Below are positions 1 through 47,710 of a stretch of DNA of 64,000 nucleotides, piece after piece. How positions within the stretch are numbered: position 1 is the stretch's first letter; each line of letters begins with the position of its first letter. The stretch is taken from contig OX597832.1 of NCBI GenBank assembly GCA_951406725.2, positions 14,074,001 through 14,138,000 of the forward strand, given 5' to 3'. Below the pieces are notes generated by a model. It ran no database searches, was not told the origin of the DNA, and was given only the letters and a program-made list of their open reading frames with translations. A program made the position numbers and the translations under genes. Origin of the DNA: Octopus vulgaris (lineage: Eukaryota).

Positions 1-1468
1 ACAAATACTTAGGAATCCATGAACTAGATAAGACACAACACACACAAATGAAAGAGAAAATAAAAAAAGAATATTATAGACGAGTTAGATCAATACTAAA
101 CACAGAGCTCAATGCTAAAAACAAGATAATAGGTATCAACACTTTAGCTGTCCCAGTTATAAGTTACAGCTACAATATCCTTAACTGGACACGAAATGAA
201 CTGACCAAAATAGACAGGAAAACAAGAAAAATAATGAAAGGATCTAGGATGCATCACCCAAAATCTGACATAGAAAGACTATATATACAACGTATAGAAG
301 GTGGTAGAGGCCTTATACAGCTGGAAAACTACTATAAAATAACCACCATAGGACTGCAAAAATATCTACTTCAGAAGGAAGGAAAACTGATCCAGATAGC
401 GGCAAAACACGAGCAAAACAAAAAACTGTTCTCAGTATTTAAGGAAGCTGAGAAATACAAACAAGAAATCATACCACCTAATAAACATGAAGAAGAAGAA
501 GAAGATGAAGAAACAACAAAAGCTATAAAAAAATGAAATCCAAACTAAAAATAGAACAGCAACGAACCATGATAAAACGATGGCAAGAAAAGCCCCTTCA
601 TGGTAAATACTGGACTAAACTAAACGCAAAAGAAATAGACAAAGAAAAATCCCAGCAATGGTTGAGAAGCTCAGGACTCAAAGCAGAAACAGAGGGATTT
701 TTAATTGCAGCACAAGACCAAAGCCTCCCCACAAGAAATTACCAAAAACATGTAATGAAAAGAAATATTACAAGTAACTGCAGAATATGTGGAGATGGAC
801 AAGAAACAATAAATCATATTACCTCTAGCTGCCCAGTCCTGGCTAAGAAGGAATATATTCACAGACATGAAAGAGTTGGAACTTACATACATTGGAAGCT
901 ATGCCAACATTATGGAATAACAACAGAAAAAAGATGGTATAGGCACACACCAGAAAAGGTCACAGAAAACGAGAAAGCAACCATACTCTGGGATATGCCG
1001 ATACACACAGATAGAGAAATTAAGGCCAACAGACCAGATATAGTTGTCAGAGACCATGAAGAAAAAAATGCTTTCTAATTGATGTATCAGTACCGGCAGA
1101 TGACAACGTGTCTCTAAAAGAAATGGAGAAACTCTCAAAATACAAAGACCTGGAAATAGAGGTAACTAGAATGTGGAATCTGAAAACAGAAACAATTCCT
1201 ATCATAGTAGGTGCATTAGGCATGATAAAAAAATATTCAGAAAAATACATAACAAAAACACCAGGACTTACACACACATATAACATACAGAAAATTGCAC
1301 TACTAGGCACTGCACACATCCTACGCAGAACACTTTCCATACAATAACCATCAGAGCATCACAACAAATCACAGCACATACCCAAGGCACACAGAGCTGC
1401 GCTCGGTAGTGAAGTGAAAGCACGCTATAAAAATAAAAATAAAACTACTGAATAATAATAATAATAAT
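1..1468 (+). mobile_element. R4/Dong-clade non-LTR retrotransposon, 3' part (RT end, CCHC zinc knuckle, restriction-like endonuclease, 3' UTR, (AAT)n tail); frameshifted; runs off window start
   Basis: Frame 3 from nt 3 reads KYLGIHE (RT motif 7), then GGRGL, CRICGDGQETINHITSSC (CCHC), RHERV, RPDIV...LIDVSVP...KEMEKLSKYKDL (PD-(D/E)xK RLE). Stop at 1345-1347, then 3' UTR and (AAT)n at 1451-1468. Frameshifts near 530 and 1068. Confidence 0.92.
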
Positions 1469-11612: not shown

Positions 11613-12502
11613 AAAGTTTTATCAATATTAAACAAATTAGAAAAAGCAACGGAGTTACTTAACGACACAAATTTTCGCACATAAATAGGTAGATAGATGG
11701 ATTGATAGATACATAGATAAAATTATAGGTACATGGATAAATAGATAGGTAAATAGATATATAGATACATAGATAGATAGATTGAGAGAGAGAGAGAGAG
11801 ATAGTTGATACATGGTTATCCCTATATATTGAAATACTTATGTATTTCCTACGTACGCACACACACGCGCATACACATCTATGTGTGTTATTGGTTTATA
11901 TGGTAGTACCATATAAATTATATTAATGATATTTCTATTAGGTTACCATGAGGAATGAATTTGTGACATATGGTTTCTTTAAAATTAATTCCTCTCCAGA
12001 AGAAAACTTAAGAAACATCTGAAAATTATCCCATAAGTTAGGAATTTGTAATTACTATACGAAAAGTTAGATTATTGAATTTTATCTGGATTACCGATAA
12101 AAAATATTATGCTATTGGCATCAAAAATGAGGCAGAAATTTTATGAAAATATTTTCTTTTGGCTACGTTGGTAAGAAAGACATGCATTCGAAGCGCACAC
12201 GTGCAAATCTGTTTAATTGTAATCCTGTTTGCACTGATTGCATGCATTCCTGTGACTCTCTGCTTCTCGTAATATCGGAGCGTACACAGAGATAGTTTTA
12301 AATCATTCGGTTCAATCATGACTGCATGACTGCAGAAAGTCATTTGTGTAGAACTGGTAATAGAGATATATTTAACGTTTTTATATCGCATACATGATAG
12401 ATGTAACGTCAACAGAGGAGTCCAGCGTAATCCATAGGCTGGGGAGGTGCAGCTGACGTGTAGAATGTCCAGTAGAAAATCCAGCTTCGAAATTTCCCCA
12501 AC

Positions 12503-12547
12503 ACACCTGATGAAAGCTGGAGGATATACCAACCGAAACGTTGTGTT
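12503..12547 (+). ncRNA. Minimal type I hammerhead ribozyme motif, family 1 (stem II partly degenerate)
   Basis: ACAC-CTGATGA-aagctggaggatataccaacc-GAAAC-GTT-GTGTT; stem I ACAC/GTGT; palindromic stem III ACGT. Confidence 0.7.
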
Positions 12548-13068
12548 AACAACAAACAGGATGAGGACAAATATCCGTCAAATTTAAATAACGTAACTAT
12601 TGTAAATAATACTCATTTTAACCTCTGTTTTTGTCGAAAAGTAAATCATAATGACAATATGACAATCACTTCTAAATTTATCGTCTTTATTAAAGTGTTG
12701 TATCTATGAAGCACACACTTATCGTTTGCGTGAAACATCAAATCCTAATTTAGATTCTATCAATATTCCCAGCTAGGTCAGGGTCATAGAAAGTTTGTTC
12801 AGTAGTGATGTATTCTGTACAGCCTTGTCTCTGTTAGTGTGTAGTTTCCAGCCAGATGCTAAACCGGATTGTTTGAGTCCCACGTGATATCTGATGATGC
12901 GTATTTATTTATTTACATCTGATATACAAAAAAGGTTTGCTTAAACCTGGGTTTTCTCCCTTATAAATAAGCTGTTACGAACTTGGTACTTGTGTGAACA
13001 TTTGCTACCGTGGTAACAATATATTTATTGTCTCCGTGCTGTTTGTAAGCACTGATAAACACACATAC

Positions 13069-36385: not shown

Positions 36386-36421
36386 TACGACTATATATAT
36401 ATTCATATTCTGTACCTCATT

Positions 36422-36475
36422 TATCACTGATGAGGGGAAGGTTCTTATGAACTAACTCTGAAATCGAGTCCGATA
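36422..36475 (+). ncRNA. Type I hammerhead ribozyme motif, family 2
   Basis: TATCA-CTGATGA-GGGG-aagGTTCttatGAACtaa-CTCT-GAAA-tcga-GTC-CGATA. Lies in a ~230-bp element (36400-36625) homologous to 39730-39965. Confidence 0.72.
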
Positions 36476-36911
36476 TGATAATAACGGGATTTTTTTAGAA
36501 ATTTCTGTCGGCTTTCTTTGAAACACGTGCTTGTAGTAACGAATTATAATGGTTATTGATTTTGTGACTATTTTCGGCATATTTTGGCATTGGAGATTTT
36601 TTTCTTTTGCTCTTACTTATAAATTATATATATATATGAATAGGTTTGTATGTTTGTATATGTGTGTGTCATAATTCTTCGTATGTATATGCATTCATGC
36701 ACCTTTATATATGCATTGAATCATTATACACACACACATACACACATACACACACATACACACATACACACACACACATATCTATATATATATATGAATA
36801 CATATATATCTATATGTACATAGAAGTACGTACACCAATGTGCACACACATATAAGAACACACTCATATATGTATAAGATGTAACCTCAGGTGATCTTTG
36901 GTTATTTTTTG

Positions 36912-38738: not shown

Positions 38739-38794
38739 TTGAAATGAAAGAAGAAAAATGCACACACTTTACGTAGTTTTAATATACTTCTTAT

Positions 38795-39650
38795 TATATC
38801 AACCGGTTTCGCTTTCACTATTCATGACATTAAGATTTAATTATTTAATTATTTAATTACGCATTTTCTTAAGAAGAAATATTTTGGGTTCCTGTTGTGT
38901 GTGGTATTTTTGAGTGAATGATAGAAACACTAGTAAAACAACGGGGAGGTAATTGATATTTGGTTTGATGTTACCTGCACATTCCTCACTTAGAGGAATT
39001 TGTCTGTATTGCGTGAGCCAGTTCTGCACTTTATATAGTGTGTTTCTCCGTTGCAATGTCATACTCGTCTGTCTAATAAACTGTTATCCATAAATCGAGC
39101 ATGTTATTACATAAATTAGGTTCTCAGAGGCACAAGTGAAACTGATTTTAATTTGAACATCTCTCCACTATTCGGGCGTCCGCATTTTTTAAGCGTTGAT
39201 TTCGTGGTTCTTTTGAAAAGCTTTGCATTTGTTACATGTCTCTTTAGCGATTTGTATTGCTCTTTGCATTTGGTTAGTTTATGCGTTTTCAGGATGTTGT
39301 TAAATTTTGTATCTCTAGTTACTAAAGGGAGATTTTGCACCATAGTCATATATGCCTCACTGTGTCTAGGATTGTGGGTCGATATAAACAGTAGTGTTTT
39401 GAGATATGATGTGGTGGTGTGCTTCATTGTCCTTAGTGCTTTATGGCTAATTTCTTGGCACGCTTAATTCCTTCGTCTAGAAGCCAGCGTTGTTTTGATG
39501 TTTTGAAGACGAAGGTCCCGAGTTGTTCTGTCAGACACTTTTTTGCAAATCCTTTTTGCTAAATTAAGCAAATTAAATGGGACATATAGTTCGACGTCTC
39601 GGTTGGCATGAGCTATAGAGAAGATATTGTTTCGAGTTCGAAGGTTTATA
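38795..39650 (-). mobile_element. Penelope-like retroelement 3' fragment (RT thumb and GIY-YIG endonuclease), decayed
   Basis: Minus strand YKPSNSKQYLLYSSCQP, VPFN..LAKRICKKVSDRTTRDLRLQ, HNP, KCGRP, then FTCASENLIYVITCSIYG*QFIRQTSMTLQRR (GIY-YIG pattern IY.I.C..C...YIG.T...L..R). Confidence 0.85.
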
Positions 39651-39693
<43 letters not shown>

Positions 39694-39777
39694 ACTAATG
39701 TATATATATATATATATTTATAACTAATGTAGGATAACATGGGTATGAGTAAGTATTTCACTTATATCTCACGTATT

Positions 39778-39830
39778 TATCGCTGAAGAGGAGAACATTC
39801 TTTGGAATTAACCCCGAAATTGGACCAATA
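39778..39830 (+). ncRNA. Hammerhead motif family 2, second copy (cleavage triplet mutated to GAC)
   Basis: TATCG-CTGAAGA-GGAG-aacATTCtttgGAATtaa-CCCC-GAAA-ttg-GAC-CAATA. Confidence 0.6.
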
Positions 39831-39966
39831 CGGTAATAACGGATTTTTTTAGAAATCTCTATCGGTTTGTTTCGGGATGCATAAGTTATAATGGTTATTG
39901 ACAATTTTTGTATTTTTTTCGGTATATTTGGCATTGGAATCTTTCTTTTGCCCTTATCTTGTAAAT

Positions 39967-40044
<78 letters not shown>

Positions 40045-40131
40045 AGATCTATATTTAAGAGATGAGGAATTATGTATCTTATTTACATTATTTACATTTG
40101 GCGGATATTTGTCCTCATCTTCTCTGTTGTT

Positions 40132-40176
40132 AACACGACGTTTCGGCTGATATACATTACTCTTTCATCAGGTGTC
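40132..40176 (-). ncRNA. Minimal type I hammerhead ribozyme motif, family 1, canonical GUC site
   Basis: Minus strand GACAC-CTGATGA-aagagtaatgtatatcagcc-GAAAC-GTC-GTGTT. The 5' strand of stem II is degenerate. Lies in element ~40045-40235. Confidence 0.72.
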
Positions 40177-40256
40177 TTGCGGAAATTTCGAGCGCTGACT
40201 TCTCATTCCTAAGGTATTTTTCCATGTTATCATTATGTTTATAATTATTATTATTG

Positions 40257-40314
<58 letters not shown>

Positions 40315-40339
40315 CACTACTACTACTACTATTAATATT

Positions 40340-41018
40340 ATTATTATTATTATTGTCATTTTCTTTTAATCTGCATGTTTGATGCAATCACCTGTCGGGG
40401 CACACCCAGCGGCCTAGGGCAAGTGAAGGTTAAGAGTTGTTGAAATATAGCTGAAAGCTTGGGGAGGGGAAGTAGAGATATATCTCCATGTAATGCAAAC
40501 ACAGACACTTACATTGATAGGGTTTTTTCTAAGGATGTGGGCAGTACTTGTTAGCACAATCTTTTGGATTTCCTTGCGACATGGTTTTCCAGGGATATTG
40601 TCTAGGTGTTTCTGACATCCCTTTTTTATCATACCTAGGGCACCTACAATAACAGGAACAGTTTTTGTTTTAAGATTCCACATCCTCTGTATTTCGATTT
40701 CCAGGTCCTTATATTTACTAAGTTTGTCAAATTCCTTGACAGATACATTTTTATCAGTGGGGACGCTTACTTCTATTAGTCTGCAGGTATTTTCTTCCCT
40801 GTCTTTAACAATTATGTCTGGTCGATTAGCCTTGATCGTTCTGTTGTTGACTGGAAAATCCCAGAGGATGGTGACATCTTTACCTCAACAACTGGCTGAG
40901 GATGGTGTTCATACCAGTTATGTCGGATTTGTAGTGTTTGATATCTTCCAATGTATATACTGTCCTACCCTATCGTGGCGATTTTTGTATTCGTTTGGTG
41001 TCAGCACAGGACATCCCG

Positions 41019-41619: not shown

Positions 41620-41709
<90 letters not shown>

Positions 41710-41765
41710 CAACAGCAACATCAAAATACCTTACACATTAGAACACAGCTTCAAAATTTTCCCAA

Positions 41766-41811
41766 GACACCTGATGAAGGCTGGATGGCTTATCAGCCGA
41801 AACTTTTTGTT
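41766..41811 (+). ncRNA. Hammerhead motif family 1, third copy (intact stem II, mutated cleavage site)
   Basis: GACAC-CTGATGA-a-GGCTG-gatggcttat-CAGCC-GAAAC-TTT-TTGTT. Preceded by (AAT)n at 41621-41706. Confidence 0.65.
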
Positions 41812-41870
41812 AAAAAGAAATATGGTGAGGACAAATATCTGTGAAATGTAAATAAAGTATGTATGTATAA

Positions 41871-47154: not shown

Positions 47155-47325
47155 CATATAAATATATGCGTGCGTGATTGCGTGTGCCCGTGCGTGTGTG
47201 TCTGTGTGAAAGGAAAATAATGTCTGTGCTTGTATGCTGTGCATATATATGTTCAAACATTCAGGCTTCTATTTACATACCGTTCTATATTTAAGAGATG
47301 AGGAATTATGTACATTATTTACAAT

Positions 47326-47710
47326 GTCAACTGGACTTCACGTTCCTCAGACTTGTCTAGCATGGATGTTTTCTTCTGAGAATACTTCAAAAAGAAGGTT
47401 TACGTCAACAAAGTGAAGGCACTGGTGCAACTGAAGGAGAACATCAATAGAGAAATGAAAGAAGTGGAGTTTGAACTTCTTGAAAGTTTTATGGTGCAAG
47501 TTTCGGAATGAATGCGGACGTGCAAACCCGAAAATGGCTGCCATTTAAGCGTTTTTTTATACGTTATATAATGGTGTTGCAACGCTTGAGTTATTGATAT
47601 TAATTCCCATTATTTACTTTATATTGTATCAAAATTTTATGCATTTATTTGTAAAGTTAAAGAATTTATTAAAAGTTGAAATTCATCAGTTACTTTTGGG
47701 ACAGGGTGTA
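47326..47710 (+). mobile_element. Tc1-like transposon 3' relic
   Basis: NWTSRSSDLSSMDVFF*EYFKKKVYVNK..LVQLKENINREM...CKPENGCHL (WPPRSPDL..DFFLWG..K.KVY pattern). Ends TTTTGGGACAGGGTG-TA. Confidence 0.7.

Follow-up and report, generated by a model that had tools for sequence, protein, structure and literature searches.

The window, the whole 64-kb stretch of octopus DNA analysed here, is AT-rich and dense in microsatellites. It contains three copies of a hammerhead motif at the places at which an initial annotation of the sequence had located them (Table 1). The three copies share 120-170 nt at 75-82% identity (E values between 1e-23 and 1e-30), and each was found to carry a lesion of its own, as had been noticed before. 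A terminal piece reported to recur near 47281-47326 was traced to a remnant of the tail of the same repeat. For the identification of the family a genome of 2.8 Gb in 227 contigs was searched. The copies in the window are almost certainly pseudo-LTRs (pLTRs) of a Penelope-like element (PLE). The tRNA-like head and the open reading frame, which lie upstream of the (AAT)n tract elsewhere in the family, had no match anywhere in the 64-kb window.

Table 1. Copies of the element in the window and features associated with them.
Feature	Position	Strand	Description
5'-truncated pLTR, 12k copy	12475..12610	+	hammerhead at 12502-12547
Hammerhead, 12k copy	12502-12547	+	GUU triplet; two mismatches within stem II
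5'-truncated pLTR of Poseidon-type PLE, 40k copy	40043..40246	-	(AAT)n tract to tail end; 82% identity to genomic copy L090, E 1e-52
Degenerate minimal type I hammerhead, 40k copy	40132..40176	-	intact core, atypical GUC triplet, stem II 5' arm missing; from sequence and alignment
Predicted cut, 40k hammerhead	between 40137 and 40136	-
ATG, inferred start codon	40204..40206	-	in the family opens the frame through the hammerhead into the ORF; frame aligned to P0128 N-terminus using copy L156, 48% identity, E 5e-25
Expanded AAT/AGT microsatellite	40247..40356	-	where the family has its (AAT)n tract; from sequence
5'-truncated pLTR, 41k copy	41693..41859	+	hammerhead at 41766-41811
Hammerhead, 41k copy	41766-41811	+	stem II kept; G16.2 and ACGU stem III palindrome lost
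Tail-only remnant	47276..47323	-	last 48 nt of the pLTR; 96% identity to family, E 9e-17

The copies at 40 and 41 kb point apart and may be the two arms of one inverted insertion which was later invaded by other repeats. Several other repeats were observed in the window. Between these two copies lies a fragment of a non-LTR element (40360-41015, minus strand), which, like a second fragment at 509-1075 (plus strand), consists of a restriction-like endonuclease end with an (AAT)n tail; Pfam returned only VRR_NUC at an E value of 0.18, and zf-RVT on the 509-1075 piece. We take both fragments to be R4/Dong-like. A second, unrelated family of dispersed hammerheads is present at 36408-36615 and at about 39740-39965, both on the plus strand. 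Its helix II has an internal loop, the triplet is GUC, and the T-rich body ends in (TA)n; a first look gave 2,108 candidates, with close inverted pairs, and the upstream sequence common to them showed no ORF. A third family, presumably Neptune-like, occupies 38750-39690 on the minus strand with a PLE-like ORF fragment containing a Cys-rich linker. A small variant of the hammerhead is located at the 3' end of this fragment; A3 pairs with U8 in its core, helix II has 2 bp and the triplet is GUC.

Exact matches were counted in the genome as a lower bound on the size of the family. A 25-mer of the tail was found at least 4,270 times and a 20-mer of the hammerhead at least 7,380 times, while neither reversed control matched at all; the dispersed motif is therefore not a product of chance. 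In the majority sequence of 90 copies selected by their tail, a 5-bp helix I is followed by CUGAUGA, one additional A and a helix II of 6 bp with a loop of 8 nt; then come GAAA, the palindrome ACGU without a loop and the triplet GUU. Helix II contains the G10.1-C11.1 pair. The core of a minimal type I hammerhead (CUGANGA, GAAA, UH) is present in this majority and is intact in 29 of the 90 copies taken singly; 21 retain the core together with both stems. Either GUC or GUU had been proposed as the cleavage triplet. Scored in 149 distinct copies, 30 of which came from loci picked using a GUU query, the triplet was GUU in 117, AUU in 25 and GUC in 1, and all 29 core-intact, tail-selected copies had GUU. 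As GUU is the triplet of the family, the GUC of the 40k copy has to be regarded as atypical. The AUU triplets are a result of CpG decay. Rfam covariance models returned no hammerhead match for the 12k copy or for the genomic copies L163 and L053, and none was present among the best 150 of 316 matches in the window.

Core and stems had been expected to stand out from the flanking sequence, and their failure to do so had been named as evidence against a ribozyme. Taken formally, this is what was observed: conservation across copies amounted to 0.970 for the core, 0.949 for the stems, 0.927 for the loop, 0.957 for the flank and 0.854 for CpG sites. A core that is no better kept than its flank is expected of dead retroposed copies which decay neutrally. 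The sole excess of variation was located at the free core position N7, where U is changed to A in 13 of 83 copies versus 12 of 1,573 at other U positions (p-value of 1.6e-11), and a restriction of the excess to N7 fits selection acting on the source elements.

The initial annotation had described a short non-coding element. This did not hold, since the family runs upstream into a PLE ORF and does not stand alone. The complete unit of about 2.65 kb consists of an ORF encoding a reverse transcriptase followed by a GIY-YIG-like domain, a tRNA-like head, the (AAT)n tract, the predicted minimal hammerhead and the tail. The reverse transcriptase domain was recognized by Pfam (RVT_1, E value of 1.2e-9) and is 40% identical to the 836-aa protein P0163 of Anolis carolinensis. 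For the endonuclease piece no Pfam match was obtained; a GIY-YIG motif can be made out, and one homologue with 60% identity bears the name 'predicted GIY-YIG'. A CxxC zinc-finger linker between the two domains was not seen by eye. The closest named protein, 75% identical, is from Octopus sinensis. After removal of 2 of 30 loci as duplicates, all 28 loci selected by the endonuclease ran into the head and 24 of them into the hammerhead or tail, which bears out the assignment as a PLE pseudo-LTR. The proposed linkage of the hammerhead to PLE ORFs was likewise found at the other end, where 22 of 30 ORF-start loci had the tail directly upstream, forming pLTR-ORF tandem junctions. All of the long copies that were read carry stops or frameshifts, and no intact ORF was seen among them. 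A hammerhead in the pLTR of a PLE is in itself a known and ordinary arrangement; the unusual part is the tRNA-like segment just ahead of it, which likely lets RNA polymerase III (Pol III) read the whole element.

The insertions show the structures of PLE copies. Counting 83 independent copies, i.e., the 90 without 7 that were dropped as reciprocal arms, an inverted partner was found upstream within 1.4 kb in 47; within 450 nt there were 34 inverted partners upstream versus 1 downstream. Neighbours on the same strand were rare (1 of 83 within 1.4 kb upstream, 2 of 83 within 450 nt downstream), and head-to-tail arrays were absent at these distances. A retrozyme-like non-autonomous element is not supported by this count and by the presence of an ORF in the family. 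The 3' ends of the 90 copies fell into 9-nt repeats in 46 cases, between these in 15 and at the tail end in 28. One genomic copy (L091) is nearly whole and has an inverted arm and a truncated pLTR on its 5' side. Partial tandems, inverted arms and tails are described as PLE features in the accessible text of two articles (PMC8557442, PMC11167929).

At the tandem junction the hammerhead sits inside the start of the ORF. The unspliced frame across the pLTR-ORF junction is open and matches the N-terminus of P0128, an 847-aa relative, through hammerhead and tail (46 of 96 residues identical, E value of 5e-25). From the Cys codon of P0128 at this place it follows that the cleavage position is occupied by U there as well. 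Of 120 long homologues, one contains the in-frame hammerhead peptide; a search with the N-terminus of P0128 matched only P0128 itself, and two metagenome scans and one scan of prokaryote genomes yielded no relatives of the element. A spliced start, in which a short GT-AG stretch in the tail would join a downstream ATG to the ORF, was considered and set aside as unneeded, as the unspliced frame aligns to P0128. As the likely ATG precedes the in-frame hammerhead, we infer that a cut would part the likely start codon from the ORF.

The head comprises 73 nt. It follows the stop codon and precedes the (AAT)n tract, at a distance of about 150 nt upstream of the hammerhead. ARAGORN at relaxed settings folds its majority sequence into a cloverleaf; neither ARAGORN at default settings nor Rfam calls it a tRNA. 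Compared with genomic tRNAs for Arg, Ala, Thr, Cys, Lys and Glu only, it reached an alignment score of 61 with tRNA-Arg, while shuffled sequences scored 28 +/- 4 and 0 of 300 attained 61. Using the consensus of the A and B boxes given in the accessible part of PMC8969392, an A box was detected in 20 of 30 head copies, a B box in 19 and both in 13, and the spacing was 33 nt in 13 of 13. In this respect the head agrees with tRNA-derived SINEs, in which the A and B boxes are separated by 30-35 nt and lie close to the 5' end. Exact 20-mers were counted along the unit: the endonuclease gave 842 matches, the sequence 25-45 nt above the head 963, the head 5,148 and the hammerhead 7,380. The copy number thus steps up at the head. 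In the individual insertions, the 5' ends of 54 of 108 head-bearing arms were located within -10 to +5 of head position +1, with 47 of 102 at new loci. The start of the head lies within a 12-bp palindrome, at whose edge (-7) 23 ends were counted; most of the 5' ends in the cluster are found at -6 to +5, off the palindrome edge. Upstream pLTRs that reach above the head into the endonuclease were encountered at 4 of the 30 ORF-start loci. Two side observations concern the head. Head and (AAT)n tract occurred with no hammerhead or tail within 900 nt in 7 of 30 head-selected copies (L271, L272 and others), and such copies might have been split or might represent a SINE-like head on its own. Moreover, a repeat of about 500 nt was repeatedly inserted in the (AAT)n tract of the pLTR, parting the head from the hammerhead (L021, L036, L057, L157).

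The sense strand of the unit was searched for runs of TTTT. None was common to the copies along the unit, which was covered 14- to 53-fold; eight single copies together contained 7 such runs in 12,400 nt. In eight low-T transposon ORFs of the same genome, which are single decayed copies and several of which probably belong to one family, 10 runs were counted in 5,376 nt; this corresponds to 4.9 expected in the unit and a probability of 0.007 for none. Synonymous shuffles resulted in a probability of 0.015 for none, and the two natural copies used for them carry 2 private TTTT runs. Two other hammerhead repeat families of this genome have 6-14 shared T4 sites. GGGG is likewise never common to the copies of the unit. 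In the codon usage, Phe codons were TTT:TTC 7:17 versus 87:67 for the other NNY codons (p-value of 0.015). A candidate Pol III terminator at ORF +400, where several copies break, was rejected as there is no T-run. Four of the genomic copies (L155, L162, L167, L176) jump at ORF +390 to +450 to a piece of the pLTR, a break without a T-run, and were recorded as internally deleted units.

Transcription by Pol III is inferred from the accumulation of 5' ends at a head with A and B boxes together with the lack of a shared TTTT terminator. We give a Pol III origin of the template RNA slightly better than an even chance. The copies in the window are probably decayed, 5'-truncated pLTRs of an abundant Penelope/Poseidon-type retrotransposon with a unit of about 2.65 kb which is likely read by Pol III from the head. 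Pol III RNAs are uncapped, and translation needs another route; it may rely on read-through by Pol II.

RNA-Seq reads were taken from three raw runs of the same or a related species. Coverage of the pLTR reaches about 4,500-fold with no difference between the orientations, and that of the ORF is about 100-fold lower. No pile-up of read starts or ends was observed at any place in the three runs, including the cut site at which RNA 5' ends had been anticipated, and no splice joints were present among the 15 of 52 RNA-read joints listed. This pattern is the one expected from passive read-through of thousands of copies and speaks neither for nor against Pol III transcripts or cleavage. Among the genomic copies, 11 of 214 arms (10 events) begin at -17 to -13 of the tail anchor, around the predicted cut (p-value of 4e-5 versus the 43 nt upstream), and none of the junctions concerned is a fold-back at the local palindrome. 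A pre-set replicate with 114 new arms, mostly selected by head or hammerhead, did not reproduce the cluster (2 versus 9 upstream, p-value of 0.32); the pooled data gave 13 versus 76 over the 79 nt upstream, with a p-value of 0.002 that is post hoc. In structure predictions, the best fold of the monomer has a mispaired core (-12.6 kcal/mol versus -12.0 for the open-core fold), and a double hammerhead was predicted at -20.2 versus -25.0 kcal/mol for two monomers. GUU is listed among the cleavable triplets in the accessible text of PMC3138052. We consider it likely that the predicted hammerhead cleaves in some context.

In a somewhat unlikely alternative, the element is an ordinary Poseidon PLE driven by Pol II, a captured tRNA-derived SINE head travels as a passenger in its 3' UTR, the 5' ends stem from fold-back of cDNA, and the lack of TTTT is a matter of base composition. 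The palindrome at the head start is in line with this explanation, since many junctions are perfect fold-backs centred on it and fold-back alone could make part of the cluster, namely the ends at its edge; the position of most ends off that edge is not, and no such peak is seen at other palindromes of the pLTR, for example the cut-site 8-mer. Base composition could be invoked because GGGG is absent too, but it has to account for a T4 deficit with a probability of about 0.007-0.015 and for the bias of the Phe codons against TTT. That promoters in PLE pLTRs are known, according to the accessible text of PMC6765202, and that the ORF requires a translatable RNA also favor a passenger head. Highly improbable is an independent SINE or retrozyme, consisting of head, (AAT)n, hammerhead and tail, with master copies of its own and mobilized by the PLE. 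Short copies are about five-fold commoner than ORF-bearing ones, the layout resembles the Schistosoma hammerhead SINEs as described in the accessible part of PMC6765202, and the head-selected copies lacking hammerhead and tail would agree with a free unit. Nevertheless, the head follows the endonuclease at every one of the 28 loci and the unit is the obligatory 3' end of a coding element, tandem arrays are missing, and priming in the anole system needs ORF sequence below the pLTR (PMC11167929, accessible text), which is absent from a solo short copy.

The hammerhead-like motif might also have lost its catalytic activity and persist solely as part of the coding sequence or as a fold bound by protein, which we consider unlikely. 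Its place in a reading frame, the replacement of GUC by GUU, a core no better conserved than the flank and the missing RNA ends at the site would agree with such a loss, as would the report that hammerhead mutants do not impair insertion of the anole Poseidon in vitro (PMC11167929, accessible text). Against it, the core, the extra base after A9, the G10.1-C11.1 pair and ACGU all match the minimal motif as published in the accessible part of PMC4209133, only N7 tolerates variation, the GUU triplet belongs to the cleavable ones (PMC3138052, accessible text), and the pooled 5' ends at the cut site, although post hoc, are in excess.

A bolder reading, offered tentatively and with slightly less than even confidence, is that a coding PLE adopted an internal Pol III promoter of tRNA type in its pLTR and eliminated every TTTT from its 2.65-kb unit, that one Pol III transcript gives rise to both short SINE-like copies and full tandems, and that the in-frame GUU hammerhead serves as a two-copy switch removing the promoter copy and the start codon. 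In the mechanism that we favor, Pol III would initiate slightly upstream of the head, by a few bases, in the first pLTR of a tandem and, as it meets no terminator, would proceed through the hammerhead, the ORF and the pLTR that follows. Reverse transcription would then be primed by the PLE protein about 50-90 nt below the hammerhead, with uncut RNA as the template; priming below the hammerhead was demonstrated in vitro for the anole Poseidon according to the accessible text of PMC11167929. Priming in the first pLTR with run-off at the 5' end of the RNA would produce the dominant head-to-tail copies of about 270 nt, priming farther down would lead to long copies and partial tandems, and fold-back or template jumps would generate the inverted arms. 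Most inserted copies would derive from uncut RNA. The hammerhead, with its GUU triplet and without a stable stem III in the monomer, would act as a slow and conditional switch which cuts only if two copies pair or a protein assists, and the cut would take away the head and the likely start codon. In the anole Poseidon cleavage required protein, and insertion did not require cleavage (PMC11167929, accessible text).

If true, a Pol III promoter on a coding retrotransposon would be unusual and would offer a direct path from an autonomous PLE to short SINE- or retrozyme-like elements, linking PLEs to the repeats of Schistosoma that combine a promoter with a hammerhead. With a defined 5' end of the RNA, thousands of genomic copies could be used to test both where the template of a PLE starts and whether the hammerhead cuts in vivo. 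A search of the accessible literature brought up no PLE with a Pol III promoter; the family may already be catalogued in Repbase or Dfam.

The closest system for comparison is Poseidon_Ac (PAc) of Anolis carolinensis, a member of the Penelope/Poseidon clade, as far as it is described in the accessible text of PMC11167929. In both elements a reverse transcriptase is followed by a C-terminal domain of GIY-YIG type, which is putative in the octopus element; both have pLTR-ORF tandems and more than one 3' end in the tail, and in both the hammerhead overlaps the start of the ORF and insertions derive from uncut RNA. In the octopus element, the hammerhead is preceded by an (AAT)n tract and by a head that carries A and B boxes and at which 5' ends cluster; such a head is not mentioned for PAc in that text. 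The octopus element differs further by a hammerhead that is wholly in frame below the likely ATG and by its GUU triplet. With the minimal type I hammerheads of metazoan PLEs it shares the missing loop of helix III, the palindromic positions 15.2-16.2, the extra base after A9, the G10.1-C11.1 pair, a 5-bp helix I and a distribution mostly as single copies and close inverted pairs; helix II has 6 bp here versus 7-8 in the Schistosoma families, the triplet is GUU, and a Pol III-type head is not described in the accessible part of the article by Cervera and de la Pena (2014; PMC4209133). In the SINE-like hammerhead repeats of Schistosoma a Pol III-type promoter likewise precedes the hammerhead, but these are non-coding and tandem, while the octopus unit is the end repeat of a coding PLE and is not arrayed (PMC6765202, accessible text). 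Animal non-LTR retrozymes also contain a type I hammerhead, related to PLE pLTRs, yet they consist of at least 2 consecutive head-to-tail units and have no ORF, neither of which holds for the octopus element (bioRxiv 10.64898/2026.07.22.740005, accessible text). Unlike in a tRNA-derived SINE, the head is not separate from its coding partner and follows the endonuclease in 28 of 28 loci. Finally, the TRIMp3 elements Helenus, Ajax and Cassandra carry a small-RNA-derived Pol III promoter in their terminal repeats, for which an origin by SINE insertion was proposed; according to the accessible text of PMC10886601 these are non-autonomous LTR elements without ORF or ribozyme, whereas the octopus element is a coding PLE.
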